DNA from: a virus
Lineage: Duplodnaviria; Heunggongvirae; Uroviricota; Caudoviricetes
Direction: 5' to 3' (one strand)
Virus record (IMG/VR): IMGVR_UViG_3300029522_000074
DNA: 64,000 nt
Shown in pieces: positions 1,541 through 55,328 of this stretch. Each line of letters starts with the position of its first letter. The stretch's first letter is position 1. Below the pieces are notes generated by a model, which was not told the DNA's origin, ran no database searches, and was given only the letters and a program-made list of their open reading frames with translations. The position numbers were made by a program, and so were the translations under genes.

Positions 1541-1544
1541 CGAG

Positions 1545-8363: not shown

Positions 8364-8525
8364 CTATTTCTTATATGATATGCCATTTTTCGTGATGGCG
8401 ACACGTTCTTTTCCTGAAGTTACAAGTAGCTTCAATTCTTTATACCGTGTAAAACACTTAACACAATATTTAACAAGATTCAAAACTGCGATTATAACAG
8501 CTGGTGTAAGAATAATGATTAGCAA
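8364..8525 (-). CDS. 53-aa small membrane peptide, type I toxin-like (below ORF-track cutoff)
   Basis: AAAGGAGGA RBS, TTG start; MLIIILTPAVIIAVLNLVKYCVKCFTRYKELKLLVTSGKERVAITKNGISYKK. Confidence 0.6.
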   Translation of the reverse strand: MLIIILTPAVIIAVLNLVKYCVKCFTRYKELKLLVTSGKERVAITKNGISYKK

Positions 8526-8542
8526 TATCTACAATCCTCCTT

Positions 8543-8602
8543 TCATAATAAGACACTATTAAAATAGGAAAGATTATAGATTTCACTATTTTTAATGTGC
8601 AT
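8543..8602 (-). CDS. 19-aa leader ORF whose stop abuts the RBS of the 53-aa peptide
   Basis: GGAGGTG RBS; MHIKNSEIYNLSYFNSVLL*. Confidence 0.4.
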   Translation of the reverse strand: MHIKNSEIYNLSYFNSVLL

Positions 8603-8840
8603 AATCACACCTCCGTACCTGATATAAGAATCAGTCGTGACTTTAGTTAATGAGTTACAAGTGTATATACACATCTTAATGATTATACCATATCAGTGAA
8701 TTAGAACAAACCCTCATATTTTAATTTTTTAATAAAACCCTTTTGCAATAAGGGAATATATAAAAGTAACACATAAACCGTATCACACTATATATAAAGG
8801 AGCGATGATATGAACTATTTAACAAGGAGAACAAATATTT

Positions 8841-9092
8841 ATGACAAAGGAAACAGAAAATCATGTAGCAAGAAGAACAATGGAACTTAAGAGAAAGAAT
8901 AAGCTTGTATGCTATCCCAAGCTAGTCGAATCAGATTTCGGTGGCTGTGGAGTTAATATTGCCAGTCGTATAGCGGCAGATTTTAAGTTTGATGAAACCA
9001 AAAAGAGAGAATGTACAACTAGAGATTATAACAAAAAGCTTAAGGCTTGTGAAGAAAGACAAAATTTAAAGGAGGAAGCGGTACATGCTTAG
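8841..9092 (+). CDS. Hypothetical protein
   Basis: ORF with AAGGAG RBS. Confidence 0.65.
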   Translation: MTKETENHVARRTMELKRKNKLVCYPKLVESDFGGCGVNIASRIAADFKFDETKKRECTTRDYNKKLKACEERQNLKEEAVHA

Positions 9093-9423
9093 ATACGAAA
9101 TTATTGCTAATGTTGGTATTAGCGTAGACTTACATAATAATTACACAGTGGTTACCTTGGCAAAATGGAATAAAGAGAAAGAATCTTATTTAGCTACTTT
9201 CTACATTAAACAGACAGATATTGACCATTTAGATCTTATGGATGACCAGATTGAAATAGAGTTTTCTTCTGAGATAAAAACAATCAAGAATGATTTAGTG
9301 AAATATATTGAAATGCTTATAGAAAGAGGAATTATTCAGAGATATATGGACAGATACAAATATGAACTTGATTGTATTGATAGAGGAACTGCTATGTTTG
9401 AGTTAGAGAGAAATGTTAAGTAA
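9085..9423 (+). CDS. Hypothetical protein
   Basis: ORF overlapping the upstream stop; GGAGG RBS. Confidence 0.7.
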   Translation: MLRYEIIANVGISVDLHNNYTVVTLAKWNKEKESYLATFYIKQTDIDHLDLMDDQIEIEFSSEIKTIKNDLVKYIEMLIERGIIQRYMDRYKYELDCIDRGTAMFELERNVK

Positions 9424-9829
9424 ATCAGATTATAGATATTTTAAAAAAGCTAAAATGGCTGCTACCATCTCGGATTATAAAAAAACACATATAGGGTGCA
9501 TAGCCGTTTACCAAGGAAATGTAATAGGAATTGGTTGTAATACAATTAAAACGCATCCTATTCAAAAATATTATAACAGATATAGAAATTCATGGAATAA
9601 GAATGGTATTAAACCGACTTTACATGCTGAAATCAATTGTCTTAATTCTATCCGTCATCTGGATATAAATTTCCAAAAAGTAAAATTATATATTTTTAGA
9701 ACGAGATTAGACAGAGAATTTGGTATGTGTCGTCCATGTCCAAGTTGTATGGCAGCGATTAAAGATTTAGGGATAAAACATATTTACTATACAAGCAACG
9801 ATGGATATTCCTATGAATGTATAAATTAA
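9413..9829 (+). CDS. Cytidine/dCMP deaminase-family Zn enzyme
   Basis: HAE and PCPSC zinc-binding motifs. Confidence 0.8.
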   Translation: MLSKSDYRYFKKAKMAATISDYKKTHIGCIAVYQGNVIGIGCNTIKTHPIQKYYNRYRNSWNKNGIKPTLHAEINCLNSIRHLDINFQKVKLYIFRTRLDREFGMCRPCPSCMAAIKDLGIKHIYYTSNDGYSYECIN

Positions 9830-9846
9830 AAAGAGAGGTTATATGT

Positions 9847-10086
9847 ATGTGCAACATTTGTGGCAATAATCCTTGTCTTATAAGATGTCCAAACTTTCAT
9901 CAGAAATATAATTACTTATGTTGCTATTGTGGTGGGGGTATTTTAAGTGGACAAGATTATCTGAGAAATTCAGAAGGACAATATATACATAGAGACTGTA
10001 TTCCATGTACTGATTATCTTATAGATTGGTTGGGATATCGTGTCGAAACAATGGACGAGGAGGATTATAAAGATGAGAATTATTGA
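9847..10086 (+). CDS. Small Cys-rich Zn-finger protein
   Basis: CNIC..CxxxCP, CCYC and HRDC motifs; GAGG RBS. Confidence 0.6.
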   Translation: MCNICGNNPCLIRCPNFHQKYNYLCCYCGGGILSGQDYLRNSEGQYIHRDCIPCTDYLIDWLGYRVETMDEEDYKDENY

Positions 10087-14074: not shown

Positions 14075-14146
14075 TCCCATATAGTTCAATGGTAGAGCAA
14101 CGGACTGTTAATCCGTAAGTTACAGGTTCGAATCCTGTTGTGGGAG
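14075..14146 (+). tRNA. tRNA-Asn(GTT)
   Basis: Cloverleaf: TCCCATA/TGTGGGA, anticodon arm ACGGA-CTGTTAA-TCCGT, GGTTCGAATCC; no encoded CCA. Confidence 0.93.
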
Positions 14147-14987: not shown

Positions 14988-15062
14988 GCTCTCTTCGTAT
15001 AGTTTGGTTTAGTACGACTGACTTGTAATCAGTAAACGGCAGTTCAAAGCTGTCAGAGAGCT
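14988..15062 (+). tRNA. tRNA-Thr(TGT)
   Basis: GCTCTCT/AGAGAGC acceptor, ACTGA-CTTGTAA-TCAGT, T-arm GGCAG-TTCAAAG-CTGTC. Confidence 0.85.
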
Positions 15063-18339: not shown

Positions 18340-18419
18340 GGGTAGGTCGTATAGCGGCAATTACACCTGACTGTAAATCAGGCGCTTCGGCTTCGTTGGT
18401 TCGAGTCCAACCCTGCCCA
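18340..18419 (+). tRNA. tRNA-Tyr(GTA)
   Basis: GGGTAGG/CCTGCCC acceptor, CCTGA-CTGTAAA-TCAGG, long variable arm, GGTTCGAGTCC. Confidence 0.93.
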
Positions 18420-21122: not shown

Positions 21123-21195
21123 GGTCTGTTCGTCTAGCGATCTAGGACATCGCCCTTTCACGGCGGCAACAGGAGTCCGAATCTCCTACAGATCA
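21123..21195 (+). tRNA. tRNA-Glu(TTC), atypical T- and D-loops
   Basis: GGTCTGT/ACAGATC acceptor, TCGCC-CTTTCAC-GGCGG; T-loop TCCGAAT. Confidence 0.8.
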
Positions 21196-21284: not shown

Positions 21285-21367
21285 GTAGTATTGGCAGAGT
21301 TGGTATTGCACTGGTCTTGAAAACCAGCATTCCGAAAGATATGGGAGTTCGATTCTCTCACACAGCG
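21285..21367 (+). tRNA. tRNA-Ser(TGA), degenerate acceptor stem (possible pseudo-tRNA)
   Basis: CTGGT-CTTGAAA-ACCAG, long variable arm, GGGAG-TTCGATT-CTCTC; two mismatches in the acceptor. Confidence 0.6.
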
Positions 21368-41043: not shown

Positions 41044-41520
41044 ATGGGTTCATTTAGACTAGATCAGAATTTTATAAATAAGATAGAAAAACAATGTCAA
41101 GAAAAAGCAAAAAATTTAGCACATGAGGCTTCTGAAAAATTAACAAATCATTATATTACATTGCTTGATTGGTATTATGCCGATTATCAACCAAAACTGA
41201 ATAAATACGATGAACCATATTATATTCGTACCTTCAATTTATATAAATCAGCTCACAAATATTATAAAAATGGAACTGATAGATTTTATGGTGGTGTTCG
41301 TATTGATGGTTCTACTATGAAAGATTATTCAGGAATTAGAAATGCTTCAATATCTGGACAGGATTTATTGAGTACATATATCTATAATCCATCTGGTACA
41401 TGGCATGGTGGTGATTGGTATGGTGGTTATGGAGTTACGGCGAGTTTTAACATTTATAACGAAATGCAAAAATATAAAAATAAATTAATAAAAGACATGC
41501 AGAATAGATGCAAAATCTAA
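41044..41520 (+). CDS. Hypothetical tail-module protein
   Basis: GGAGGTG RBS; directly before the tape-measure gene. Confidence 0.6.
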   Translation: MGSFRLDQNFINKIEKQCQEKAKNLAHEASEKLTNHYITLLDWYYADYQPKLNKYDEPYYIRTFNLYKSAHKYYKNGTDRFYGGVRIDGSTMKDYSGIRNASISGQDLLSTYIYNPSGTWHGGDWYGGYGVTASFNIYNEMQKYKNKLIKDMQNRCKI

Positions 41521-41534
41521 TAAGGAGGAATAAA

Positions 41535-44500
41535 ATGGCAAAAGATGGTATAGTAAGTATTGCTATTGATTATAAAAACGAGCTTAATCAAATGATTCGT
41601 GATTATGAATCTGCTTTAACTAAGATGGCTTCAAATGATAAGTTATCAAAAGGAATGAAAGCACAATTTGATAATACAATTGCTGAGTTAAAGCGTTTTA
41701 AGGCAGATATGGAAAAATCTTTTTCTGATTTAAGTATCGGAAAAGTGGATAAAAACAGTTTTAAAGCTTTTAAACAAACTGTTAATAAGAATTTTGAATC
41801 TGTTCGTGCAGAAATTGATAGATTAGATTTAGCTGTTTCAACTATAAATTCACAGATAAAAATACTTGGAAATGGTGTTGATATAAGTAAGATAAGTAGT
41901 CAATTTAAAGATTTTCAAGATTATGTACAGAATACAAATAATGCTATTGATACAATGATTAAAAAACTTGATGGTCAAGGCATTTCATTAATATCATTTG
42001 ATGATAGCGCAATAAATCAAGCAAAGTCTCAGATAAAAGAAATTAATAAATTACTTAAAAGTACAGATGAGTTCAGCGATGCAAAAGGCTCAAAATATGA
42101 ATTATTTGATACAGAACAAGCTCAAGCAGAACTAGATGTTCTTGCCAAAGATTTAAAAAATACTCTTGAATTAATTGAAAAATCTGAATCGGAACTTTCA
42201 AATTTTGATAAAAATAGCATCGGTTTTGAAAAAACTATTAACCAAATCAATATATTGAAATTAAAAGCTGCCGATTTACACGATTCTATTCAACAGTTAA
42301 TAGATATTCCCGATAAAACAGGAGAATATACATTTGGTGATTCAATACTTATTTCTGATGACAATGTTGATAAAAAAGTATCTGAATATGAAAAAATTGT
42401 AAAAGGAACTTTAGATGAAATTCGTGAATCTGCCATCAAAACTCGTGAAGAGTTAGATAAAATCGTAACACCTACCTCTTCCAAAACAGCTTCTGCAAAA
42501 ATATCAGATAAACTCAACCCAAATTCAGCAGAATTAGTAACTGGTGTAACAATTGAAACCACTTCATCTGAATTATGGAAAAAGTTATCTCCTATTATTG
42601 AAGATTTACAAAATATCCTTAATAAAAATCCCGTTGTTGCTCCTGTAAAACTTGTAGTAGCACCAAATGCAGTATCTTCTGAAAAAAATGGTGAAGTTGG
42701 CACTATTAGCAAATCTTATTCGAAGAAGTATCAAAGAGAATTAGCAAAAACTGGTGAAGATGCAGTTATTGATTTAGAGGGTGTTTATAAGAAAACATTT
42801 ACTTCTATAATGGATGAAGCTGTTTCTTATTCTAAGGAAACAATTTCTAAAATTCAAAATATCTTTGAATCTTCTCCTATTAAATTACATTTTGATTTTA
42901 ATGAAGAAGAATTTAAGAAAATATCAGATACACTTCTCTCTTCTGATTCTGATAAAAAGATTGACATTACAGATCAGATTGCAGAATCAAAAAAGGAGGT
43001 TAATGAACTTGCTGAAAAACTTGCCGAAGTTAATGAATTATTAAATTCAGCAGATTCAAAGGATTTTAGTTTTAAAGGGTTTGATAAATTCGCAGAAGAA
43101 ATTTCAAAAAGCCTTGGTCAATTAGTCGAATTACAGTCAATGTTAAAGACATTACAGAATATAGAATCTACTCTCGCTAGAGCATCAGGTGTAAGTAGTG
43201 TCACTGATATTGAAACACAGTGGCAGAATGTATCTAAGTTAATTGAGAATTCTATTAAGTTAGATGGTACTTTTAGAAAAAATGCAAATGTAGATAAACT
43301 TGCTTCAGAATATAACAAGTATCTCAATATGGGTGGTACTAATGAGTTATCATTTATTGGAAAGGTTGGGAAACTTGAAAATAGCAAGAATATTATGGAA
43401 GCTATTCTTTCAAAAGCTAAAGAGCTAAATTCTCAAAAAGTAGATACATCTTCTGTAGATAAAGCAGATGATGAATTGAAATCAGTATCTTCTACTCTCG
43501 ATGACGTTATCTCTCGTCTTGACCATATGATAAATTTGACAAGAGATATTGGTAATACATTTTATAAAATGTTCAAAGACACTTCTGTTAGTGATATAGA
43601 TAAACAGTGGTCTTCTATCGAATCTAAGTTCAAATCTATTGCTGATGAATCTGGCAAAATAAATCTCTCTAAACAGAAAAAAGATATTCAAGAATTAGTT
43701 GAAATGTACCAAAAGTATGCAAATACTGGTGGTATGAAAACTCCTTTTGATTTAACAGATAATGCAGAAACCATTAAAAAAATAAATAAAGTCTATGAAC
43801 AGATGAATTCAAAAAAAAATAGAACTTCTGTTACGAATGAGTCAAAGAATTTCATTAAAGTAGAGGATTCTGTTAATAGTCTCACTTCTGCTATTAATAC
43901 AAAGACTGAAGCTATTAAAACAGAAGCTAATACAATGGAATTAGCTGCAAGAGCTGAAGTCAAATCTATTCAGAAGATTATTGATGCATTAAATCCATTA
44001 ATTGAGAGAATAGAAAGTATTCCTGAATTAAAGATACCAAAAGAAGATACTATTCTTCCACATAAGGAATCGAATATTTCATCGGCTTCCAATCCAAGGA
44101 AAGACGCATTTCCCTCTAATGAAGAAGTAAAACAGAAAGAAAAGTTAGCTGAAGCAACTAGAAAACTTCGTCAAGAAGAAAAACAGTCAAGTCAAGATTC
44201 TGTTAATTCTGCGTTAAAAGATCAAGTTTCTGCATGGAAACAGATTCAATCTATTCGTGAAAAAATAGCAAAGGTTGATAATCCAGATGTTATTAACCAA
44301 CTTCAAGAAACTAAAAGATATTACCAGCAACAGTATTTAGATGCAACTAAAATTCTAAAATCTAATCAAGATTTATACGATGCACAAGGACAGTTAAATA
44401 GGCTTAAACAAATTGAGTTAGAAACAACTGCAAAAATTAGTCAATATCAAAGTAAAAATACTGAAAGTGTTTCAAAGTATAATCAATCTCTTAAAGATAA

Positions 44501-46094
44501 TGCAACTCAAAAATTATCTAATTATAATAACACTTCTAAATATACTCCTGAATTTATTGAACGAGTTAATTCAAAAATCTCTGAAATTGGACAACTTGAT
44601 ATTACGAAACCAGAAGATGTTGCTAGATTAAAAACAATTGACAGTGAAGTTCAGAAAATTGTCGATGATTCAAAGTTATTAGAGAATAAACTTGTTAAAC
44701 AAGATTCTAAGATTGCTGACATTATATCACAGATGAAGATTTTTAGGTCACAAAATACTAATATGTCTTCATCACAAAAACAAGCATTAGATGATGTAAT
44801 TAATTATGCCGAAAAACTTGCAAATACTGGTAAGGTAACTGCCCAACAAATAGAAAAGATAAAAATATCATTTTCTGGATTAAAAGCTGTAGTTGCATCA
44901 AGTGGTAATATGGGTAAAAACTTCTTTAGTCAAATCGGTAATCGTCTTACTGATATGAACAGCAAATTTGTTGCTCAGTTTTTGAGTTGGCAAGATTGGA
45001 TAAGATATATTCAGCAAGGCGTAAATACTATTCGTGAACTTGATACAGCGATGACTGAAGTTAAAAAAGTATCGGATGCAACAGAAACACAATATTCATC
45101 ATTTAGAGACACTATTTCTTCTACTGCAAAAGAGATTGCAACAACAAATAAAGAATTGCTTAATTCTAGTGCAGATTTCTTAAGATTAGGATATAGTCTT
45201 GATCAAGCAAGCGATCTTGCTAAAAACGCCACATTATTTGTTAATGTCGGTGATGGTGTTGATATTACAGAAGCTACCGAAGACATGATTACAGCTATGA
45301 AAGCTTTTGATATCCAAGCTGAAGATAGCATTAAAATTGTTGATGATTATAACCAGATTGGCAACCAGTTTGCGCTCTCTGCTTCTGATATTGGTGAAGC
45401 AATGAAACGTTCTGCATCTGCTCTTGAAACAGGTAATAATAGTTTTGAACAAAGTATCGGTCTTATTACTGCTATGAATGAAATTGTTCAAAATAGTGAA
45501 AACACAGGTAACTCTCTTAAGGTTTTAAGCCTGCGTTTAAGAGGTGCAAAGGCAGAATTAGAGGATATGCAGGAAGACACAGATGGTCTTTGTGATTCAA
45601 CCTCTAAGCTTCGTGAACAAATTAAATCTTTGACTGGTGTTGATATTATGTTAGATGACAATACATTTAAATCAACAACAGACATTATTAAAGAATTAGG
45701 TGCTGTTTGGGATAAATTATCCGATTCTTCACAAGCTGCAACTCTTGAACTTATAGCTGGAAAATCAAGGGCGAATAATGTAGCGGCGTTACTTAAAAAC
45801 TATCAAAGAATTGATGAAGTTATGGAAAGCCTTGGTGATGCCGAGGGTTCAGCAATGCGTGAAAATGAAGCTATAGTTGATTCAATCGATGGACGAATTA
45901 AGAAACTATCTGCTTCTATGGAAGATTTTTGGCAAAAAGCAATAAATACAGATTTTGTAAAAAATATTGTATCATCACTTGATACCATATTAAATCTATT
46001 AACAAAAATCATTGATCAGTTCGGTTTACTTCCAACTATTATTGGTGTTGGTGGTGCTGGTACAGGTATCTTTAAGTTTATTAAGAATTTTGAT
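41535..46094 (+). CDS. Tail tape measure protein, exon 1 (unspliced ORF runs on to stop at 46154)
   Basis: Long coiled coil with TP901-type TMP core (ELDTAMTEVKKVSD...GNSLKVLSLRLRG...AGKSRANNVAALL); AAGGAGG RBS before ATG 41535. Confidence 0.85.
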
Positions 46095-46660
46095 TGGGTT
46101 TTAAAACCTTACACAAAAAACTCTCTCCAACAGTTTTTAGTTGGTCAATCATAGATAAGAGAATAACATAATGGCGTTGTAATCAAGTCTATGGATACAT
46201 GGGATTCTTAATAAAAAACTCTGCAAACACTTTAGCGGAGTATAAACTTTACATGGAGGAATAAATGCTTGAATGCTTGGTAGCTTAACAAACTACCCAC
46301 GGATCACATAACAAACCATAATCCATATAGTTATATTGGATGAGGTTGCGAAAGTAGAAAAAATTGTATATGTGGATATATGAGAATATCAAGGAGACTT
46401 GATAGGTGTCTAAGTATCATTAACAACGGGCAACGAGCAGGACGGTACTCTACATTTTATAATGTTGACCATATATAGAAATGAAAGGTCATATATAGAG
46501 AATAACTATATAAGAGAGCAATCCCCAACGACATACCCATCCTCTAAGTGAGTCATCGCCTTAAGTATGACATTCGCTTATAATGCATAGTGTACATTGC
46601 GATTTCGGAATTCAGTAATGTACTTGAGTGTGTGTTTCACTCAACTAGGAAATTCCAAAA
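46095..46660 (+). ncRNA. Group I ribozyme-like catalytic core
   Basis: P4 TGCTTG(46274-79)/CGAGCA(46434-39), P6 GGA/TCC, J6/7-P7 CAAC-GACATAC(46526-36), P8 GTACATTGC/GTAATGTAC, P7' GTGTGTT(46630-36). Confidence 0.7.
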
Positions 46661-46686
46661 ATAATTTATAAACAGAGAATAATAAA

Positions 46687-46712
46687 ATAGGACTGTCGTG
46701 AGACAGCCCTAT
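46687..46712 (-). terminator. Terminator hairpin between the cargo genes and the ribozyme core
   Basis: ATAGGACTGTC-GTGA-GACAGCCCTAT; T-rich tail on the minus strand. Confidence 0.55.
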
Positions 46713-46751
46713 CATTGAAGTAAAGGAGAATAAATATATAAATGAAGAACA

Positions 46752-46937
46752 TTAATGATGAAGATTGATATTGATATCCTTAGAAGTCATTTCTGCTAAA
46801 CTTCCAGTTTTGGAATCACTGTAGTCTTTGCAGATTTTAGCAATGTAACATTTGCCAACGATTGAAGCTATGTGGCATATTACATAACATATTCCAAGAA
46901 TTATTGAACCGATTATCTCGGCATATAATATATTCAA
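46752..46937 (-). CDS. 61-aa single-TM peptide (type I toxin-like), intron cargo
   Basis: GGGAGGTG RBS, TTG start, hydrophobic N-half, long structured leader. Confidence 0.6.
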   Translation of the reverse strand: MNILYAEIIGSIILGICYVICHIASIVGKCYIAKICKDYSDSKTGSLAEMTSKDININLHH

Positions 46938-47155
46938 TATGTATTTTCACCTCCCTTCTTAGTAAGAATATAAATAAGTAGGGAATATTCTTTTAGCCCA
47001 GAACGGGCAGATATTTATTCCGACTGCCATAAAAATAGACATTGGGACAACCTTCGGTTATAGAGTGTTATGGCACACATCTATGTTGTTTCTCCAATGT
47101 CTATATTTTACCATTGTATTTAATTCAATACAATCCCAGAACAATAGTTCTAATT

Positions 47156-47326
47156 TTATAATTGTGAGTTAATATACTCTTCTCTTTCGGATTTCGTCAT
47201 TGAGAAGAATTTTTCAAATTCTATATCAAGATTTTTGCATTCAATGTTGCATGTTCTGCATATACATTTTATATAATGTGTGTATGTGATTCTATGACAA
47301 TTAGGACAATAATGGATTTTAAACAT
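47156..47326 (-). CDS. 56-aa zinc-ribbon protein, intron cargo (below ORF-track cutoff)
   Basis: AAAGGAG RBS; MFKIHYCPNCHRITYTHYIKCICRTCNIECKNLDIEFEKFFSMTKSEREEYINSQL. Confidence 0.65.
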   Translation of the reverse strand: MFKIHYCPNCHRITYTHYIKCICRTCNIECKNLDIEFEKFFSMTKSEREEYINSQL

Positions 47327-47380
47327 AATCTAACTCCTTTGTGTGGTATCTAAATCAGTCGTATTATTAAATGTTAATCA

Positions 47381-47662
47381 TTACATATTATCCTTTTCAG
47401 TATCGAGCGTTATTTTATCATCGCTTAATGAATATTCTCTATGATAGAATTTAGTAATATCCATATCTAATGCCTCAATTACCCTACAAGCAGTTTGGAA
47501 AGTGGCTGATTCTATTTTACGCTCTCCACTTTCAAATTTTTGATATTGTTGAGGTAGAATTTTTGCTTTCTCGGCAACTTCTTGCTGAGTTAATCTAAGA
47601 TTGATTCTTCTTTCTTTGAGTATGTTAGATGTTGTTAATAATTTAAAAAGTTCTGTTTTCAT
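47381..47662 (-). CDS. XRE-family HTH regulator, intron cargo
   Basis: LTQQEVAEKAKILPQQYQKFESGER; AGGAGG RBS. Confidence 0.85.
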   Translation of the reverse strand: MKTELFKLLTTSNILKERRINLRLTQQEVAEKAKILPQQYQKFESGERKIESATFQTACRVIEALDMDITKFYHREYSLSDDKITLDTEKDNM

Positions 47663-47676
47663 ATTTTCCTCCTATC

Positions 47677-47721
47677 ACATTCATTTGAGTGTATTTTACA
47701 TTCAGGTGAATGTCTTGTCAA
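47677..47721 (-). promoter_or_regulatory. Promoter with two tandem palindromic operators
   Basis: ACATTCA-tt-TGAGTGT (47677-92) and ACATTCA-gg-TGAATGT (47698-713) flanking the -10; TTGACA-17-TAAAAT on the minus strand. Confidence 0.75.
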
Positions 47722-47809
47722 GTACGAAAATACTAAACAAATGTTCTTGTAGATATATGCCAAATATTGGTATATAATGAACAAAATAGTATATTTAATA
47801 GGAGACTAT

Positions 47810-48754
47810 ATGAACAGGGAACATTTTTATCAAAAAACATGGTTTAAAAATTTTATATTAATAATTATACCATCTTTAATATCTGTTTTTGGTGTAATTA
47901 TTTCTTTTGTTCCAGAAAGTGTAAGACCTATATTAATTTTTGCAACAATCATATCTTTGGCAATATTAATTGGATTTGTAATTTATTTTGGAAATCAGGA
48001 TGACGATTTACATAAAAAATTAGAAAATCAACAATTACAAAACCTGACACTTACAAATATTATTGCTCATATGGAAAATTTATATAAAACTAATACATTT
48101 GAGATTTCAAGTTTATCTAATACCTTTGAGGTATGGGCTTCAGCAATTAATTCTTTTGCTAATAATATATTTAAAACTGGAACTATTTCTAATAAAGCAT
48201 GGGATAAAATAAAATATATAGATGATATTTGTGTTTGTTGTAGAAAGTTAATAGAACAATATTGTAACAATACTGATGATTCTAAAGTGTTTGTAAGTTT
48301 TGTTTCTTACACTTTGGATAAAAATGGTGAAGAATGGGTACATATGATATGTCATTCAAGTCCTATTACAATAAGACCTACAGCATATAAAAAGAAAATG
48401 AAATTATCTACATGTAAATATCATTTTGCGGATTTAATTAAAGATAGTTATTCTGGTATTGAAATTGCATTAGATAACAATGAAGTTAGAGCGTTATTTA
48501 AAAAAGTTTCCATAGAAACTGATTTATCCCAATATACTCAATACATTGCTATACCTTTATATTGTAAAAGCGGAAAATTATTGGGAATCTTTCAAATAGT
48601 TACAAAGAATGGTTATATAATTGAAGATTCAAAAGTAAAAATGGAAAAATTCATTACAGATAACATAATACCTTTATCTAATTTAATTATTCTTACTGAT
48701 AAAATATATAAAGGTCTTTACATTACTCCAACAAATATTAATGAGGAGGAATAA
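47810..48754 (+). CDS. Two-TM membrane protein with C-terminal GAF-like domain, intron cargo
   Basis: Two N-terminal TM helices; YIAIPLYCKSGKLLGIFQIV GAF-like strand pattern; TATAAT and GGAG upstream. Confidence 0.6.
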   Translation: MNREHFYQKTWFKNFILIIIPSLISVFGVIISFVPESVRPILIFATIISLAILIGFVIYFGNQDDDLHKKLENQQLQNLTLTNIIAHMENLYKTNTFEISSLSNTFEVWASAINSFANNIFKTGTISNKAWDKIKYIDDICVCCRKLIEQYCNNTDDSKVFVSFVSYTLDKNGEEWVHMICHSSPITIRPTAYKKKMKLSTCKYHFADLIKDSYSGIEIALDNNEVRALFKKVSIETDLSQYTQYIAIPLYCKSGKLLGIFQIVTKNGYIIEDSKVKMEKFITDNIIPLSNLIILTDKIYKGLYITPTNINEEE

Positions 48755-48757
48755 TTT

Positions 48758-49087
48758 ATGGCTAAATATAAAAAAAAAGAAATTCAGATTATCGACATGA
48801 GCAGCCGTTTAAGGGTTAAAATTGTTGAAAGTACATACGAAGAAGAGCGTAGACACGAGGAAGAGTTTGAAGAAATGCAACTTAAAGTTGAGAAAAGAAT
48901 GATTCAATATGAAAAAGATATTCGTAATCTACTCATTGAGGCTAAAACAGAAAGTTGTATAAAGGTTACACCTAAAGATACAGAAAAATATATAAAAAAA
49001 TATAATGATGAATTTTCAGGCAAAAATTCTAATAACATTCAAAGAAGAATACAAATGATTCAAAAATATTTAGAAGAGCAGGACTAA
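48758..49087 (+). CDS. Charged hypothetical protein, operonic with the TM-GAF gene
   Basis: GAGGAGG RBS in the upstream gene end. Confidence 0.7.
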   Translation: MAKYKKKEIQIIDMSSRLRVKIVESTYEEERRHEEEFEEMQLKVEKRMIQYEKDIRNLLIEAKTESCIKVTPKDTEKYIKKYNDEFSGKNSNNIQRRIQMIQKYLEEQD

Positions 49088-49101
49088 TCTCCTGCTCTTT
49101 T
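49075..49101 (+). terminator. Plus-strand intrinsic terminator inside the intron
   Basis: AGAGCAGGA-ctaatc-TCCTGCTCT-TTT. Confidence 0.65.
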
Positions 49102-49128
49102 ATATTACTCTTCTTTTCTATTATCTCA

Positions 49129-49248
49129 TCAGTCTTTATCTTCAGATCCGCTACATTCGTCACTGTGTTCACAGAATTCACAATAACATTCATCTGTATA
49201 ATCACCTGTTTGCCAACATAGTTCTGTTGGAGGCATATCATTGTTCAT
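49129..49248 (-). CDS. 39-aa acidic Cys-rich peptide, intron cargo
   Basis: GAGGAG RBS; MNNDMPPTELCWQTGDYTDECYCEFCEHSDECSGSEDKD. Confidence 0.55.
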   Translation of the reverse strand: MNNDMPPTELCWQTGDYTDECYCEFCEHSDECSGSEDKD

Positions 49249-49330
49249 AAACTCACCACTCCTCTGCTTAAAAATATCTTAATTATACACTTGTTATTTT
49301 ATCAAATTATTATATGTGAGGTGAATCAAT

Positions 49331-49459
49331 ATGAAATTATCTATAAAGATTAAAATAAATGAAATACGAGAACTGAAACCAATTGTTGAGTATATAAAGA
49401 ACTTGGAGAATAATTCTCCCGAACTCAATACAGAGATAGAAATTGAGCTGGGAGAATAA
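49331..49459 (+). CDS. 42-aa hypothetical peptide, intron cargo
   Basis: GAGGTG RBS; MKLSIKIKINEIRELKPIVEYIKNLENNSPELNTEIEIELGE. Confidence 0.55.
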   Translation: MKLSIKIKINEIRELKPIVEYIKNLENNSPELNTEIEIELGE

Positions 49460-49462
49460 TTA

Positions 49463-49690
49463 TTAGTTTTCTTTTATAACTTCAATAATTGAAATTTCTG
49501 ACTTAGAGATGGTAAATGCATTAGTGTCAGAATATAAATGTAAATCATATCCAACTGAATAATGATGATTAAATATTTCTTCATTTTCAAGATTGTATTC
49601 TAATACGCCTTTATGACCATAATAGACCTTATTGATATGGTTGTATTCTTGCACTTTACCATCTTTGTTTTTAATTTTAAATGTATACAT
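49463..49690 (-). CDS. Hypothetical protein, intron cargo
   Basis: GAGGAGGA RBS. Confidence 0.65.
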   Translation of the reverse strand: MYTFKIKNKDGKVQEYNHINKVYYGHKGVLEYNLENEEIFNHHYSVGYDLHLYSDTNAFTISKSEISIIEVIKEN

Positions 49691-49768
49691 AGTATCCTCC
49701 TCTGTAATTTGATATTACTATCATACTACATTAAGGAATATTTTACCATTCGGAACATTAGTTCTTAC

Positions 49769-50179
49769 TTAAAAATCACTCTTACAATTATTGCAGTGCC
49801 ATTGTTTCTTAACCTTTTGTGAGAATATACCAAACATCGCTACCGATGTTACCTTTGATACTCCTGATATTTTCTTACAATTTGTACTATTACAATATGG
49901 ACAATGAACTTTATTCAACCAATCTTGTGCTTGTGCGTTAGCTTGGGCGATTTGCTGTGGGGTAAGGTCGGGAATCGCAGGATTGTTTTCTTTAGTTCCA
50001 TATTGTTTACTTAATTCACACCATAGTTGTTGAGCATCGTCATCTGAACAATTTGTTAATTCTTGAATAAACTTTATTCCTTTTAATGTTTGATTTTGAG
50101 CAATTATCACCAACATTTTTGTTGCTTCCGTGCTTTCAATTTGATTATCAAAATAATATTTTGCTTCTTCGTAATTCAT
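49769..50179 (-). CDS. C-terminal zinc-ribbon protein, intron cargo
   Basis: CPYCNS...WHCNNCKSDF; AGGGGG RBS. Confidence 0.75.
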   Translation of the reverse strand: MNYEEAKYYFDNQIESTEATKMLVIIAQNQTLKGIKFIQELTNCSDDDAQQLWCELSKQYGTKENNPAIPDLTPQQIAQANAQAQDWLNKVHCPYCNSTNCKKISGVSKVTSVAMFGIFSQKVKKQWHCNNCKSDF

Positions 50180-50228
50180 AATAACCCCCTTTTTTTGTTT
50201 TTATTATATCAGACAACACATAAATACG

Positions 50229-53200
50229 CAATTAAAGACTGTTGGAGAGTCTGTTAGCGTTATATCAAAACTTGAAGAAGCTTTAAAAGAAATAGACAAT
50301 ATTGGTACTGTTGGTATGCCTAGAATGGCACAGGTAAACAGATTGTTAAAAGAAACTTTTGCTGACTGTTCCATTGAAGCTGCAAAAATGGCGATTTCGC
50401 AAAGTGCATTAAATAAAGAGCAAATAGAATTGATTTTATCCTCAAAAGGTCTTACAGGTAATATTCTTGAAACCACTACGGCTGAACTTGCCAATGCAAC
50501 TGCTACTAATGCCGTAGCTGTTGCCGAAGGTACTGCTACTACTGCTACTGTTGGATTTGGTACGGCTATTAAAGGATTGGGAGCATCGTTAAAATCACTC
50601 GTTGCCGCTCATCCTGTATTACTTGCTATAACGGCTGCTATAGGTGCAATTTATGCTACCGTAAAAATCGTTGACGCTTGTACGACAAGTTTTGATGAAT
50701 TAAAAGATAAAATATCCAACTTAAAACAAGATGTTTCTGATTCTGAATCAACTTTAAAAGATTATAAAACTCAGCTTGATGAGATAAATCAGAAAATAAC
50801 CGAAATTAATAATCAAGATTCTTTAAGTTTTACAGACGAACAAGAATTAGAAAATCTCAAAAATCAGAAAACCGAGCTGGAAAATATGTATAATATTGAA
50901 AAAGCTCGTCATGATTTAAAACAAAAAGAATTAGAAGATACTGCTAATAAATATTTTGATAAGAAAATAACACCTTCCTTGTCTAAAGAATATAAGGATT
51001 ATTCGGTTGTAGACGAAGATGGATTTGAAAAAAAACTTACAAAACTTGATATAATGAATTTAGCCAAAGAAAGAATGCTTTTAAATCAATCTAGGTTAGA
51101 TACATTAAATGAAGAATATAATGATAAATCAAACCCTTCCAATAAAGAAACTAAAGAGTATGAGAAAAAGAAGGCACAACTTGAAAAAACTCGTGATGAT
51201 GCAAAGACAATTGCGTTAGACATTCAAGAGGAAGCAAAAGATCAAGTTGAAGGCTTAGATTCAACTTCTGATACCTACAAAAAAGTTACAGAAGCTTCGC
51301 AGGAATTATCTGATGCGTTGGCAAGACTGAATAATGACTGGGATAGTCTATCTGATAAAGGTAAACAAGAAAATTTATTTTCTAAGATATCAAAAGATAT
51401 TCAAAATAGTATATCTGATGGATTAGATGATGAATATAACAAAATATCCGATTGGGGACTTGACGAATATACAGATAAGATAAAAGATGGAAGTATTCAA
51501 TCCAAATTTGGCAATGTGGATATGGATAAACGTACTATTATTCATTGGTCTGATGAACTAAAGAAAACATATGCTGACGCATTAGCAAGTTGGGATTACG
51601 ATCCAGAAATAGGTTCTATTGATACAGTATTTGGCGGTTCAGAGCGTTTTGGAGAAGATTTAGATGGTAATGGTTGGGAAGTCGCCTTCACTCCTATTTT
51701 GCCAGATGGAACATTTTTATCTAAAGATACTGTTGAAGAATATATTAATTCTATCTTAACAGAAGCTTATGCTGATGATGGCAAAGTTACAGAAGATGAA
51801 TTGACTGCTATTGATGCTGAAGGTCGTCAGATTGGAGATACATTTGTACAAGGTATTTTCGCTGGTATTGATGATAGTCAAGACTATGACAATAATGGTA
51901 ACTGGGCAGAAGTTGTTGGTCGTCTTATGCATTTTTCTGGAAAAAATGGTGCTGTACAGATATTAAAGAATAATCAAAATTCTTCATCTGATAATATGAG
52001 TGCAATTAAAGATTATCTTTCAACCTTATCTGATGATGATTTAAACATTCTTGCTAATGTGACTTTTGATGAAGACACTACAGTCGAAAGTCTTAAAGAA
52101 GTTATTAAAGCCGCTCAAGAGGAAGCCAACAAAAGTTCAGTAGATTTATCTGTTAAAACATTTGATCCTACTTCTCTTCTTGAAGAATCAGATGATAAGA
52201 CTAAGACAGCAACATTAGCAGACCTTCAGTCAGAAGCAGATTTGCTATCTTCTATTCAGAAGGAAATGTCTGAAACAGGTCGTATCGGTGTTGATTCAAT
52301 GCAGAAAATTATCAAGCAGTATCCAGAAGCAAAAGACGCTTTAGGTCAGTATATGCTTGGTATTATTTCACAGGAAGAGTTGTTTGACCAGTTACAGGGT
52401 GTGTATGAGGATGATAAAAATGCTTATATTTATTCACTTGTTGAGAAGTCTAAGAATGATAGTACGTTCTATTCTAACCTTGTAAATACAAATAATGAGT
52501 TCTTTGCAGGCTTATCTGAAGCGTATAGTGAAGATTTCAGTAACTATAAAAATCTCGCACAAGCTAAACAGAAGATTGATGACCAACTTGTTAAATATCT
52601 TTCTGGTATGTGGGGTAAATTCTATCAGAAGACTATAGATACAGCAACAGGATTAATGTCTTTAAGTTCAAAAACTACTTCTATGGATGATGATATGGAT
52701 TTAGGCTTATATCTGTATCAGAATGGTGCAGATGAAGAGACAAATGCAATTGCTGAAATGCAGAAAATGGTTGATGATTACAATGCTTTACAGAATATAT
52801 CATTTGAGTCTGCTTTTAATGGTATTGATTTATCATGGCAAGGTTTTTCAGGTGACGATTCATCATCTTCCAACAATTCATCCTCTTCACAAACAGAACA
52901 AGATGTGGACTGGATTGAACGCTTAATCAATAAGATTTCTACAGCATATTCACGTTTAAAGAATGTTGTATCAGATACAACAACTACATGGCTCAATCGT
53001 AATAACGCATTGTCAGATTCTATGAGCACACTTGCAGATGAGATAAATGCACAGTCAGATGCTTATGAGTATTACATGAATGCTTTTAATTCTTATGGTC
53101 TTGATGCCTATTATAAGAATCAGATTGCAGATGGTTCTATAAGCATAGATGTTATTTATGATGACGACTTAAAGGACGCTATATCTGATTGTCAGGATTT

Positions 53201-55328
53201 CTATGATAAAGCACAGGACGCTAAGACCGCCGTTCAGGAACTTAATATTGAGTTAAAAGGACTTGCTAAGAGTAGGTTCGATAATGTAGCTTCTGAATTT
53301 GAAGAAAAGATTAATAAGATTGTTGCCGTTAGAGATTTATACAGTAAAGAAGATGAACTTATGAACGAAAAGGGTTGGTTCTCTTCTACCCTACTCAATT
53401 CAGCAATGATTGACCAGGAAAATAAGAATCTTCAAAAACTCGAAGCCGAAAGGGATGCTTTAGTCAATGCATTAAATTCTGCTGTAAATTCTGGAAGCAT
53501 TATGCCTGAATCAGAGGATTGGTATTCTATGCAGTCAGCAATAGATGAAGTTTCTTCAAGTATTTTAGATGCTAAGAAGGCTTTGGTCGAGTATGATAAC
53601 ACCATTCGCCAGATTAATTGGGATGCTTTTGATAGAACTCGTGATGACGTTGAAAACCTTATTACTGAAACAGACTTCCTTACAGAATTACTTAAGGATG
53701 TCGGAATAACTGATGATAATGGTAATATGACCAAAGAAGGTCAGGCTGCTCAGGCATTACTTGCACAGAAATACCAATTATACCTTAATCAAGCAAAAGC
53801 TTATAAAGATGAAATTGCTAAAATTGATGCTGATTTAGCCAATAATCCTTATGACAAAGAGTTACTTGACAGAAAACAAGACCTTATTGATAAGGAACAA
53901 GAAGCTATTAAGTCTGCTATGAGCGAAAAAGATGCCATTAAGAATTTGACTAATGATGCTTATAATGATTTTATTGATAAGCTTGGAGATGCCATTGATA
54001 AATACAAAGAGCTTATGAGTACTATGAAGGACGCTTACGATTATGAGAAATCTATTCGTGAGAAAACGGAAGCTCTTAATGCTTTAGAGAAACAATACTC
54101 TGCTCATCAAGGCGATAATTCTGAGGAAGGTAAGAAGAATATTCAGCAGCTTAAAGACCAGATTAATTCTGCTAAAGATGATTTGAAAGATACTGAATAT
54201 GAAAAGCTTATTAGCGACACTGAGAAAATTTTAGATCAATTAAAAGATAATACACAAGAATGGCTCAATCAGCGTTTGGATCAATTGGATAATCTAATTC
54301 AGGATATTATTGACCAATCTAATGATAATGCTTCTGATATTGCAGAAACTATTACTTCTACTGCTGAAAATTATGGTTATAAACTAAGTGAATCAATGGC
54401 TTCTATATGGAGTACTAATACTGGTAATATAACTAAGGTTCTTGATAATTTCAGCACAAGTTTCATTGATAGCAATTCAAAGATTAAAGATGTTTGTGAT
54501 AATATCAATTCCGCTGTACAGGGATTACTTGCAAATAGTAATGCCGAGGCACAGAGAGTTGCCGATGAGATTGCAAGACAGCAGGCTGAACAGAATGCAA
54601 GTTCTGATGGCGGTTACTCAGGCGGTAATGATTATTCTGGTGATGATTGGAGTGGAAACTGGGATACTGGTTCAGATGATAATGATTCTTCTGGAAGTGA
54701 CGGTGTTGATTGGATATATAGTAAGGATTATTTCGATAAAAATAGTTTAAATATAGACACATCAATCGTAGATCGCCTTAAACTACACGATTATGATTCA
54801 TCATTCGCAGCTCGTAGTCAGTACTACGATCAAATGGGTGGTGAAGGACAGTATTACGCTACTTATGATCAGAACGTGTGGATGCTTGATTGGATGAAAA
54901 GTCATGGTTATCGTAAAGGAACTAAATCAGCAATAAGTGGACTTCATATTTATGATGAAGATGATCCAGGTTCAGAAGTACTTGTTACTAAGTATGGTGT
55001 GCTTCGTCAGTTTGATTCAGGTGATACAGTATTCAATAAAGACCAAGTTGAAAAACTTTGGAATCTTTCTAAAGGAATCACTACACCAAACATGTATATG
55101 GATAATCTTGGTGCTAAGTTACCTGATATCTCTAATATGTCTAACAACCTGTCTAATAAGGTTGATGTCCAATTTGGAGATGTAACTTTATCATTACCTA
55201 ATGTACGAAACTATGAAGACTTTATGAAAGAAGCCCAGAAAGATCCTAAGTTCGAAAAGATGATACAAAACATGACTCTTGGACAGACTCTAGGTAGGAA
55301 TTCATTAAACAAATTAACATTTAGATAA
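50229..55328 (+). CDS. Tail tape measure protein, exon 2
   Basis: Open frame from 50229 (QLKTVGESVS...) into ORF 50316..55328; coiled coil; no SD before ATG 50316. Confidence 0.85.
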   Translation, partial: QLKTVGESVSVISKLEEALKEIDNIGTVGMPRMAQVNRLLKETFADCSIEAAKMAISQSALNKEQIELILSSKGLTGNILETTTAELANATATNAVAVAEGTATTATVGFGTAIKGLGASLKSLVAAHPVLLAITAAIGAIYATVKIVDACTTSFDELKDKISNLKQDVSDSESTLKDYKTQLDEINQKITEINNQDSLSFTDEQELENLKNQKTELENMYNIEKARHDLKQKELEDTANKYFDKKITPSLSKEYKDYSVVDEDGFEKKLTKLDIMNLAKERMLLNQSRLDTLNEEYNDKSNPSNKETKEYEKKKAQLEKTRDDAKTIALDIQEEAKDQVEGLDSTSDTYKKVTEASQELSDALARLNNDWDSLSDKGKQENLFSKISKDIQNSISDGLDDEYNKISDWGLDEYTDKIKDGSIQSKFGNVDMDKRTIIHWSDELKKTYADALASWDYDPEIGSIDTVFGGSERFGEDLDGNGWEVAFTPILPDGTFLSKDTVEEYINSILTEAYADDGKVTEDELTAIDAEGRQIGDTFVQGIFAGIDDSQDYDNNGNWAEVVGRLMHFSGKNGAVQILKNNQNSSSDNMSAIKDYLSTLSDDDLNILANVTFDEDTTVESLKEVIKAAQEEANKSSVDLSVKTFDPTSLLEESDDKTKTATLADLQSEADLLSSIQKEMSETGRIGVDSMQKIIKQYPEAKDALGQYMLGIISQEELFDQLQGVYEDDKNAYIYSLVEKSKNDSTFYSNLVNTNNEFFAGLSEAYSEDFSNYKNLAQAKQKIDDQLVKYLSGMWGKFYQKTIDTATGLMSLSSKTTSMDDDMDLGLYLYQNGADEETNAIAEMQKMVDDYNALQNISFESAFNGIDLSWQGFSGDDSSSSNNSSSSQTEQDVDWIERLINKISTAYSRLKNVVSDTTTTWLNRNNALSDSMSTLADEINAQSDAYEYYMNAFNSYGLDAYYKNQIADGSISIDVIYDDDLKDAISDCQDFYDKAQDAKTAVQELNIELKGLAKSRFDNVASEFEEKINKIVAVRDLYSKEDELMNEKGWFSSTLLNSAMIDQENKNLQKLEAERDALVNALNSAVNSGSIMPESEDWYSMQSAIDEVSSSILDAKKALVEYDNTIRQINWDAFDRTRDDVENLITETDFLTELLKDVGITDDNGNMTKEGQAAQALLAQKYQLYLNQAKAYKDEIAKIDADLANNPYDKELLDRKQDLIDKEQEAIKSAMSEKDAIKNLTNDAYNDFIDKLGDAIDKYKELMSTMKDAYDYEKSIREKTEALNALEKQYSAHQGDNSEEGKKNIQQLKDQINSAKDDLKDTEYEKLISDTEKILDQLKDNTQEWLNQRLDQLDNLIQDIIDQSNDNASDIAETITSTAENYGYKLSESMASIWSTNTGNITKVLDNFSTSFIDSNSKIKDVCDNINSAVQGLLANSNAEAQRVADEIARQQAEQNASSDGGYSGGNDYSGDDWSGNWDTGSDDNDSSGSDGVDWIYSKDYFDKNSLNIDTSIVDRLKLHDYDSSFAARSQYYDQMGGEGQYYATYDQNVWMLDWMKSHGYRKGTKSAISGLHIYDEDDPGSEVLVTKYGVLRQFDSGDTVFNKDQVEKLWNLSKGITTPNMYMDNLGAKLPDISNMSNNLSNKVDVQFGDVTLSLPNVRNYEDFMKEAQKDPKFEKMIQNMTLGQTLGRNSLNKLTFR

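Follow-up and report, generated by a model that had tools for sequence, protein, structure and literature searches.

IStrons, such as CdISt1, BcISt1 and their relatives, combine a group I intron core at the 5' end with a 3' tail of kilobase size (PMC4227781; review PMC3984707). They are located inside genes and are thought to be harmless because they are spliced out (PMC4227781, PMC3984707), and their 3' flanks vary, with a stem inside the intron close to its 3' end (PMC4227781). Group I introns were also described from the tape-measure genes of Bacillus cereus group prophages, where TMP-IVS1, 2, 3a and 3b (Tourasse and Kolsto 2008, PMC2504315) measure between 200 bp and more than 1 kb and either contain a gene for a homing endonuclease or lack one. 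An earlier note on the DNA studied here knew of no description of a comparable arrangement; as far as the cited parts of these papers extend, both systems precede it. The element lies in a window (the whole stretch of DNA that was analysed) of 64,000 nucleotides. As those parts describe the two systems, it resembles IStrons in having foreign genes in the 3' tail, an apparent 3' splice site far from the 5' core and a location within a gene, and it shares with the TMP-IVS introns the host gene, the phage type and the fitting of different introns to one site through P1/P10. It differs from IStrons in that the tail is not an IS200/IS605 or IS607 transposon but a multi-gene, two-strand cassette with its own control-like sites, and in that a long P10 appears to anchor the 3' end to the exon and every copy occupies the same site of a single gene. 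It differs from the TMP-IVS introns in that the five intron lineages at one codon have inserts of 1.7-5.9 kb with up to six non-endonuclease genes.

The nrdD (sunY) intron of phage T4, which is said to have been described by Michel et al. in 1992, reportedly has a 5' core and an ORF in its 3' part, with a 3' splice site located hundreds of bases from the core through pairings including P10. It is also said to hold one same-strand endonuclease gene in a tail of less than 1 kb and to have a short P10. A 5' core and a distant 3' splice site defined by pairings including P10 would be common to both elements, whereas the insert here is kilobases long, lacks an endonuclease gene and has a long P10. 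Temperate phages (e.g. P2-like) possess a fixed spot between conserved genes that holds changeable, prophage-expressed defence or toxin cassettes; here, in contrast, an intron-like element in an essential structural gene contains the hotspot. Overall, the element is probably a group I-type intron whose 3' splice site is remote and whose cargo comprises several genes, akin to IStrons and tape-measure introns.

It is shown by sequence comparison that the tape-measure (tail-length) gene of this large gut prophage is one gene, interrupted at a codon boundary by an insert of 4,134 bases (46095-50228). The two exons and the strands that would guide their joining are as follows.

41508..46094, + strand: tape-measure exon 1, 1529 codons from the first ATG (ORF list)
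46090..46094, + strand: exon side of P1, pairs with 46144-46148; its last base is the U of the U.G
46123..46143, + strand: guide strand for the exon-2 start (extended P10), pairs with 50229-50249
46144..46148, + strand: guide strand for the exon-1 end (P1), invariant; G46144 is opposite U46094
50229..50249, + strand: exon side of the extended P10, an identity island across 8 lineages
50229..55328, + strand: tape-measure exon 2, 1699 codons and a stop (ORF list)

Exon 1 encodes a PhageMin_Tail domain (Pfam, 8.8e-20, residues 1202-1418). The open frame of ORF 1 continues beyond 46094 to a stop at 46154, and these 20 codons have four different readings among relatives, with frames shifted by indels; the tail is therefore non-coding. 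Joining 46094 to 50229 gives an open, in-frame reading of 3228 codons (1529 + 1699) from ATG 41508, or of 3219 codons from the next ATG, which is the count behind the about 3219 aa of the earlier note. The coordinates given there for the exon-1 end (46094), for P1 with its U.G (46090-94 with 46144-48) and for G50228 were all correct.

The boundaries were examined in related loci. In nine of 24 loci, the exon-1 match extends exactly to the final residue ahead of 46094, the exon-2 match opens with the codon that follows 50228, and the two matches are 2227-4283 bases apart; a second set of 16 loci has inserts of 2226-5835 bases. Relatives have the same RNA of ~560-590 bases at this codon, and what follows it in their 2.2-5.8 kb inserts is unrelated in content. 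The last insert base, G50228 on the + strand (omega-G), is likewise G in all 20 relatives in which the exon-2 match begins at residue 1, while the sequence immediately upstream of the 3' junction falls into seven unrelated families. The relatives thus back the exact boundaries and the earlier claim of a split tape-measure gene, with insert ends that would behave as splice sites. The gene is unbroken in seven of the 24 loci (L017, L018, L020, L022-L025) and runs 1002-1881 codons past the homologous point; these relatives are only 37-53% identical, have an alignment gap near the junction and do not place it to the nucleotide.

It could be argued that the insert is not spliced at all, the halves being made as separate proteins and the RNA serving instead as, for example, a regulatory or processing element for the cargo or the late transcripts. 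The stop at 46154 after exon 1, the ATG at 50316 and a terminator-like site on the + strand inside the insert would suit this explanation. However, no in-frame ATG, GTG or TTG is present from 50229 to ATG 50316, and this ATG, as the earlier note had stated, has no Shine-Dalgarno-like purine run ahead of it. No exon-2 start codon is conserved among relatives: the first one occurs only at codon 63-65 in L011, L015 and L063, and in L059 the first 80 codons of exon 2 include neither ATG nor GTG nor TTG and directly follow a stop, yet protein-level homology still begins at the first codon, as in the other relatives. The first eight residues of exon 2 are conserved although the start codon is not. 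Separate proteins would also not explain why the guide matches the exon ends, why the G is constant or why the boundaries are exact, and distant relatives have an unbroken single gene. We consider this explanation rather unlikely, and we infer that the insert is spliced out.

The pairing between 46123-46143 and 50229-50249 extends over 21 contiguous positions and was recomputed as 19 Watson-Crick and 2 G.U pairs with zero mismatch, as in the earlier note. The guide parts of P1 and P10 are contiguous on 46123-46148, and therefore both exon ends would be placed side by side on one strand. This helix exceeds chance: it is the longest between the first 150 insert bases and 46401-52000, and 200 shuffles of those 150 bases gave longest helices of 11-18 pairs, none of the 200 reaching 21. 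P10 thus lies beside P1 and pairs with the start of the 3' exon, as in group I introns. Moreover, 46090-46094 shows no change in any of the 21 distinct core variants or the 33 distinct 5' junction variants, with the U.G wobble expected of group I introns at the 5' splice site, and the terminal G of this class is constant across the seven unrelated 3' end sequences.

The exon side of P10 has a mean pairwise identity of 0.886 in 8 lineages, compared with 0.35-0.40 just upstream and 0.40-0.56 downstream; this conservation could owe something to an overlapping leftward promoter. Among the relatives seen, only the outer 11 and the inner 5 of the 21 pairs are constant. The middle of the helix is variable, with mismatches and bulges of 1-2 bases, and the perfect 21-pair form is not general. 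Guide-strand substitutions (two C-to-T and one A-to-G, in L010/L122, L050/L140 and L106/L148) keep the pairing in all three cases, and the T-run of the guide has 5, 6 or 7 bases in relatives. Covariation of guide and exon 2 had been suggested in the earlier note as a check; on the exon side, three kinds of change keep a pair and four break one.

The first part of the insert forms a conserved structured RNA with these elements.

46095..46680, + strand: conserved structured RNA, presumed ribozyme core (conservation, RNAalifold)
46097-46108, + strand: core hairpin
46150-46193, + strand: P2
46218-46241, + strand: P2.1
46254-46260 with 46540-46546, + strand: P3
46266-46524, + strand: P4-P6-like domain with two GNRA-type loops
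46525-46539, + strand: 15 invariant bases between P6 and P3'
46545-46580, + strand: P8, in three different complementary versions
46581-46591, + strand: 11 invariant bases between P8 and P9
46592-46623, + strand: P9
46624-46644, + strand: P9.1
46649..46655, + strand: seven bases able to pair with exon 1 at 46085-46091 (RNAalifold consensus)

Core identity is ~95% in relatives with exon-2 identities of only 30-96%. The RNAalifold consensus contains 151 pairs, 18 of them with compensatory changes (both sides altered). Compensatory changes are seen in P5-, P6-, P8- and P9-type helices; P3 and P4 scarcely vary and are consistent with the fold without being proven. Together they give the group I order of P3 around P4-P5-P6 followed by P8 and P9, and the layout as a whole (P1, P2, P2.1, P3 around the P4-P6-like domain, P8, P9) is group I-like and partly backed. 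In the pairing of 46649-46655 with 46085-46091, one-sided changes retain most pairs, and two diverged variants have one mismatch each. A first proposal for P7 was refuted, since compensatory changes support P8 instead.

A canonical P7 with a guanosine-binding pair was not identified in the core. The invariant 15- and 11-base stretches, which are R-like and S-like, form only four Watson-Crick pairs around a bulge, and the remaining P7 candidate consists of these four pairs, the bulge and a possible displaced G-C between G46530 and C46645, the latter directly after P9.1, with all bases invariant. These features, and the lack of an Rfam match, could indicate a self-splicing RNA with the same guide geometry that is not a true group I ribozyme: it might belong to a derived or a novel class, or have a group I core whose guanosine site is rearranged, for example with P7 gaining its last pair only downstream of P9 and P9.1. 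We judge this reading unlikely. The U.G at the 5' site, the terminal G in 20 of 20 loci, the contiguous P1 and P10 and the order of P3, P4-P6, P8 and P9 follow the group I pattern, and the R-like stretch resembles that of the canonical-looking intron in the related locus L019. The search with Rfam RF00028 proposed earlier returned no match at E<=10, either on 5.5 kb or on 641 bases; this null is weak evidence because the core of L019 fails the same low-power test. The earlier assignment to group I therefore stands for the layout and the compensatory changes but not for strict membership, no canonical P7 having been identified.

We further found other introns at the same codon boundary in sister phages (L019, L013, L021 and L016), each with a guide matching its own exons. 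That of L019 has 1749 bases, 6 pairs in P1, 9 in P10 and textbook-looking R and S elements, and that of L013 has 5952 bases with 7 pairs in each helix. Relative to L013, P1 of the L021 intron (5182 bases) has one compensatory change and, in place of the U.G, a C facing an A. In L016, P1 has 6 pairs, RF00028 scores 20.9 bits (E 0.57) against a gathering score of 50, and the insert exceeds 8 kb, a lower bound counted to the end of the fetched locus. AbiH, NsnA-like and MazF-like genes are found in the cargo of the sister introns, and in L019 a different intron of the tape-measure gene has a LAGLIDADG gene (5.2e-29). The sister introns have kilobase tails and a P10 of 7-10 pairs. The earlier proposal that the long P10 locates a remote 3' site is thus backed only in part: no more than the outer 11 and inner 5 pairs are constant, and 7-10 pairs serve sister introns with tails of 5-6 kb.

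The following genes and putative control sites are located between the core and the terminal G.

46686..46713, - strand: terminator-like hairpin closing leftward cargo transcripts just before the core
47156..47326, - strand: gene for a 56-aa cysteine-rich protein, in all seven cargo versions examined
47381..47662, - strand: gene for a 93-aa helix-turn-helix regulator (Pfam HTH_3 1.7e-07; PHROG repressor families)
47777..48754, + strand: gene for a 325-aa protein, N-terminal part hydrophobic
48758..49087, + strand: gene for a 109-aa charged protein
49071..49102, + strand: terminator-like hairpin within the insert, on the strand of the tape-measure gene, with 13 pairs (5 G-C)
49463..49690, - strand: gene for a 75-aa protein, also in L014
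49769..50179, - strand: gene for a 136-aa protein with a C-terminal zinc ribbon, adjoining exon 2
50203..50231, - strand: promoter-like site for the zinc-ribbon gene, putative, from a reading of the sequence

This cargo is a changeable gene set, mostly on the other strand, with its own promoter- and terminator-like sites, and it differs between near-identical cores. No family match was found for the 56-aa protein, and the 325-, 109- and 75-aa proteins belong to no known family; the same pair of genes that includes the 325-aa gene is present in L012. The helix-turn-helix gene is divergent from the next two genes, with promoter-like sites on both strands in 47693-47778. A gene with the C-terminus type of the 136-aa protein, whose Atlas cluster is 'zinc-ribbon family protein' of phage and Bacillota, occupies this position in all window-type cargos and also in three further intron lineages. 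Its promoter-like site combines a TG-extended -10 hexamer (50203-50211) with a weak -35 lying across the 3' junction; the promoter scan missed it because the first hexamer matches at only 3 of 6 positions. The terminator-like element before the core is present at the same place in L004 and L015. The cargo of relatives includes toxin-like or defence genes, where the window has a repressor-type regulator together with two genes outside known families. No IS200/IS605- or IS607-type transposase or TnpB was found in the window cargo (10 ORFs) or in that of relatives (Pfam, PHROGs), apart from a zinc-ribbon match below threshold and, in L015, a single weak match to a PHROG transposase, and no homing endonuclease (LAGLIDADG, GIY-YIG, HNH or similar) is present in window-type cargo.

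Both the window and L004 have + strand terminator-like sites within the insert, and the 21-pair guide exceeds what a cis reaction should require, given the 7-10 pairs of sister introns. These features raise the question of trans-splicing, in which exon 1 with the core and the insert end with exon 2 would be two RNAs brought together by the long guide. We find this improbable, as L015 has no such + strand site, no convincing + strand promoter lies ahead of exon 2 (only 9/12 matches at 49284-49313 and 49386-49414) and no observation requires two RNAs.

The guide arms also form an inverted repeat of 21 bases in the DNA, which, with a changeable cargo, might suggest that a recombinase or a DNA-binding protein uses it to excise or invert the cargo. 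Such an event is very improbable in our view. No recombinase or invertase was found in any of the seven cargo versions, in all of which the conserved cargo genes have the same orientation; the insert ends have no direct repeats; and inversion between the arms would not fuse the frames. The differing guides of other lineages match their own exons, which fits RNA pairing.

The reading we favor, and hold to be probably correct from the sequence evidence, is that 46095-50228 is a group I-type self-splicing intron with its core in the first 560-590 bases and a 3' splice site 3.5 kb away reached through the extended P10. Late transcription would read through the cargo, the core would fold and guanosine would attack at 46094/46095. 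The guide would hold exon 2 so that G50228 enters the active site, and the exons would be joined into a frame for a single protein of about 3,220 residues. For the lysogen we predict independent expression of the cargo genes, and the intron would be a safe parking place inside an essential gene. More tentatively, an intron in the essential tape-measure gene of this gut-prophage clade may have become an exchangeable dock for defence, toxin and regulator cassettes, its 3' site being reached by an extended exon guide over 2-6 kb of foreign DNA that is partly transcribed antisense, and its core having a rearranged guanosine site outside current group I models.

The tape-measure gene is carried by two frames on the plus strand, separated by an insert of 4,134 bases (46095-50228).

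41508-46154, plus strand: exon-1 frame from start to stop, with the codon boundary at 46094 and a PhageMin_Tail domain
50229-55328, plus strand: exon-2 open frame by ORF reading, with its first ATG at 50316

The exon ends, the guide pairings and the G at 50228 described in the earlier note were all found in the sequence. Searching viral contigs with the 398 C-terminal residues of exon 1 retrieved 24 loci. In nine of them the match stops at the final exon-1 residue, and the exon-2 match starts from residue 1, 2227-4283 bases further on. The same insert begins in three others, where the locus ends short of exon 2, and five possess a different insert in the same place. In the other seven, which are only 37-53% identical, the frame continues uninterrupted for 1002-1881 codons. 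The start of exon 2, used as a second query, gave 21 loci, 16 of them with both sides present and inserts of 2226-5835 bases. The base preceding exon 2 is G in all 20 loci that match from residue 1 (20/20), though upstream of this G the sequences belong to seven unrelated families. Mean identity over the first 21 exon-2 bases is 0.886 among eight lineages, compared with 0.35-0.40 in the 59 bases upstream and 0.40-0.56 in the next 63 bases.

The stretch of 20 codons from 46094 to the stop at 46154 shows four different readings in relatives, produced by indels and one base change, and is thus not coding. No conserved start codon of exon 2 was found across the relatives compared. In one relative (L059) exon 2 lacks a start throughout 80 codons and is immediately preceded by a stop, while the first start lies at codons 63-65 in three others (L011, L015 and L063). 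The unbroken relatives align across the junction with a gap nearby, and they support the continuity of the gene rather than the exact junction base. That the two frames are not spliced at all is unlikely given an exon 2 of this kind, even though a terminator-like site on the coding strand inside the insert counts against splicing.

The two exon ends are brought together by one contiguous guide in the 5' part of the insert. Bases 46090-94 pair with 46144-48 to form P1, with U.G at the junction. The adjoining 46123-43 pair with 50229-49 to form P10, in which all 21 positions are paired (19 Watson-Crick and 2 G.U), and base 50228 is G. When the first 150 insert bases were shuffled 200 times and compared with 46401-52000, the longest helix ranged from 11 to 18 and none of the 200 reached 21, which bears out the long guide helix proposed before.

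P1 is invariant in the junction variants compared. The outer 11 pairs of P10 (46123-33 with 50239-49) are invariant in every relative seen, including the third positions of three exon codons that they cover, and the inner five are kept except for a first-base change in two lineages. The guide T-run is 5, 6 or 7 long depending on the copy. Three base substitutions occur in the guide, two of them C-to-T and the third A-to-G, and each keeps the pair. The middle of P10 is loose, with three kinds of exon-side change keeping a pair and four breaking one. A promoter-like site of the leftward zinc-ribbon gene (50203-50231, minus strand) overlaps the 3' junction and the first exon-2 bases, so that the same bases would serve protein code, RNA pairing and promoter. 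This site might contribute to how well the opening exon-2 bases are conserved; it does not explain the guide complementarity. Just 5' of P1, exon-1 bases 46085-46091 can pair with the core end at 46649-46655 (seven bases). This pairing, which relatives largely retain (two diverged variants have one mismatch each), may close the modelled core into one domain.

In related phages, four to five other intron lineages occupy this codon boundary. The guide of each matches its own two exons side by side, which gives independent support for the guide reading.

L019: 1749 bases; P1 + P10 of 6 + 9 pairs; U at the 5' and G at the 3' junction
L013: 5952 bases; P1 + P10 of 7 + 7 pairs
L021: 5182 bases; P1 + P10 of 8 + 10 (7 and 9 paired)
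L016: more than 8 kb, to the locus end short of the 3' end; P1 of 6; weak Rfam match
L009: 4089 bases; P1 + P10 of 4 + 10 pairs; the junction, which is ambiguous, would come after a G

The P1 of L021 differs from that of L013 by one compensatory change and has C opposite A where L013 has U.G. The idea that a long P10 finds the remote 3' site is partly supported: in these sequences a long tail is usual for the site, and a P10 of 21 pairs is not.

A conserved core makes up the first 560-590 bases of the insert. Relatives share it at about 95% identity, with 30-96% in their exon 2. Three sequence anchors match it in viral contigs (30 and 38) and metagenome contigs (34), always in the same gene, after the same exon-1 end and with the same invariant core stretches. 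A 21-base anchor had no match in 185,579 species-representative genomes, an nhmmer search for more distant copies over the fetched loci returned near-identical ones only, and blastn against 50,697 phage records gave nothing except a 46-base match in the cargo. The genome of the window itself holds a single copy. Two metagenome contigs with the core RNA are 1.86 Mb (L097) and 0.97 Mb (L110) in size, which indicates that members of this phage group reside in bacterial chromosomes as prophages.

On 21 distinct variants RNAalifold predicted 151 pairs, and in 18 both partners change. Especially informative were two diverged lineages, L062/L081 and L106/L148. In the consensus model, the helix order of the core is that of a group I intron.

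5' part of the core, plus strand: P1 with the guide, a hairpin directly 3' of the 5' junction, P2 and P2.1, by consensus pairing
46254-60 with 46540-46, plus strand: P3, surrounding a large P4-P5-P6-like domain with two GNRA-type loops
46525-39, plus strand: invariant stretch of 15 bases between the P4-P6-like domain and the 3' strand of P3
46545-80, plus strand: long P8, with compensatory changes in three lineages
46581-91, plus strand: invariant stretch of 11 bases, followed by P9 and P9.1

A first P7 candidate (46530-36 with 46565-71, with a short P8) shared bases with P8 and was dropped, because three lineages keep the local hairpin and its surrounding stem (P8) by compensatory changes while the P7 pairing decays. 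Two further pairings were rejected: that between 46535-39 and the five bases at the intron's 5' end is broken in two variants, whose changes suit the local hairpin, and a 9-pair helix of 46578-86 with the P2 loop has a mid-helix mismatch in about 8 of 21 variants. The remaining candidate, 46531-35 with 46588-91, has four pairs around a bulged A and lacks the guanosine-binding G-C pair, unless C46645, right after P9.1, supplies it. All these bases and C46645 are invariant in every copy, leaving no covariation to read, and the modelled guanosine site may be rearranged.

The Rfam group I model RF00028, to which the earlier note had pointed, found no match on 641 bases of the window region even at E<=10. 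This result carries little weight, because the sister intron L019, with textbook-looking R and S elements (the two strands of P7), likewise gave no match and L016 reached 20.9 bits against a gathering score of 50. The P1 U.G, the terminal G, P10 and the order of P3, P4-P6-like domain, P8 and P9 fit a group I intron. No canonical P7 was found, which counts against splicing and leaves room for a spliced element with a core that deviates from group I, a reading we regard as improbable beside that helix order.

Taken together, the split gene, exact boundaries, U.G, constant G, contiguous guide, startless exon 2, structured RNA and sister introns point to group I-type RNA splicing as the best reading of the sequence, and a probable one. 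Trans-splicing would join the exons from separate transcripts, to which the coding-strand terminator-like site might be suited; we consider it quite improbable. Rearrangement at the DNA level is very improbable. None of the sequencing runs listed for this stretch is an RNA run. Contigs of four runs over 45000-51500 do not contain the 46094-50229 joint; they are probably of DNA and have no bearing in either direction. Among the phage genes, a T7-type RNA polymerase gave no match, with an equally silent control, and RtcB was not found. Other RNA features of the window are as follows.

1477-1545, minus strand: Pistol self-cleaving ribozyme (RF02679), scoring 60 bits (gathering score 34.5)
14075-14146, 14988-15062, 18340-18419, 21123-21195 and 21285-21367, plus strand: five tRNA genes

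The cargo between the core and G50228 lies on both strands.

46686-46713, minus strand: leftward terminator-like hairpin, the first element after the core
minus strand: 56-aa cysteine-rich gene, then HTH_3 regulator
between the HTH_3 regulator and the 325-aa gene: divergent promoter region
plus strand: 325-aa membrane-type gene and 109-aa gene
49071-49102, plus strand: terminator-like hairpin 3' of the 109-aa gene
minus strand: 75-aa gene and 136-aa zinc-ribbon gene (49769-50179), adjoining the exon-2 side

Seven cargo versions were found behind near-identical cores. The small cysteine-rich and zinc-ribbon genes are common to all, and the middle differs, with PemK/MazF-like genes in L006 and L015 for example. 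The L015 gene (267 aa, 10860-11663) is split in L014 (10810-11614) into frames of 134 and 149 aa. Other intron lineages carry GmrSD_N/NsnA/PD-T4-2_A-like genes (L013, L021), AbiH with a CapP-like peptidase (L016), and DUF3800, DUF4760 and LytTR proteins. The region 47381-49087, also present in L012, comprises the HTH regulator divergent from the 325-aa and 109-aa genes, the last two of no known family; it is a candidate new defence or exclusion cassette, since relatives hold toxin-like or defence genes at the same position. The zinc-ribbon protein, encoded on the opposite strand next to exon 2, combines a variable N-terminal portion with a zinc ribbon conserved at the C-terminus. Its gene (L009:12670-13194; L013:14712-15185; L019:9900-10394) is present in every intron lineage whose exon 2 was reached and is the sole cargo in L019; it may play a part in the spread of the intron.

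Window-type cargo yielded no gene for a transposase, recombinase or homing endonuclease. A second interruption of the tape-measure gene was observed in relatives about 240-330 codons upstream of this site (L019:7137-7790; L021:8566-9720; L023-L025 about 8480-9982), at a point where the gene of the window is unbroken; in L019 this separate intron holds a LAGLIDADG endonuclease gene (Pfam 5.2e-29).

The T4 nrdD intron has a remote 3' junction. The consulted parts of PMC2504315 describe prophage tape-measure genes that contain group I introns, different ones being adapted to a single site, and those of PMC4227781 and PMC3984707 describe IStrons with a 5' group I core and a kilobase tail. Against these three, as far as the sources consulted in part extend, the tail here is an exchangeable cassette of several genes on both strands that lacks transposase and endonuclease, P10 is long, and the predicted guanosine site may be rearranged. 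Tape-measure introns and kilobase tails have precedents; in the partial texts our literature search covered we found no description of multi-gene non-transposon cargo in a group I intron, nor of a P10 this long.

If the element splices as proposed, a ribozyme can choose a 3' splice site several kilobases off, across terminators and antisense genes, which would bear on group I splice-site selection and on how trans-splicing and circular-RNA ribozymes are designed. Gene callers would keep cutting such tape-measure genes in two and miss the RNA, because Rfam does not detect the core. The intron would be a neutral cargo bay within an essential virion gene and a new type of hotspot where prophages carry defence and toxin genes, holding AbiH, NsnA/PD-T4-2-like, CapP-like and MazF-like genes in relatives and an uncharacterised regulator with a two-gene cassette here. 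Cargo cassettes without a known family are candidates for new defence or exclusion systems.
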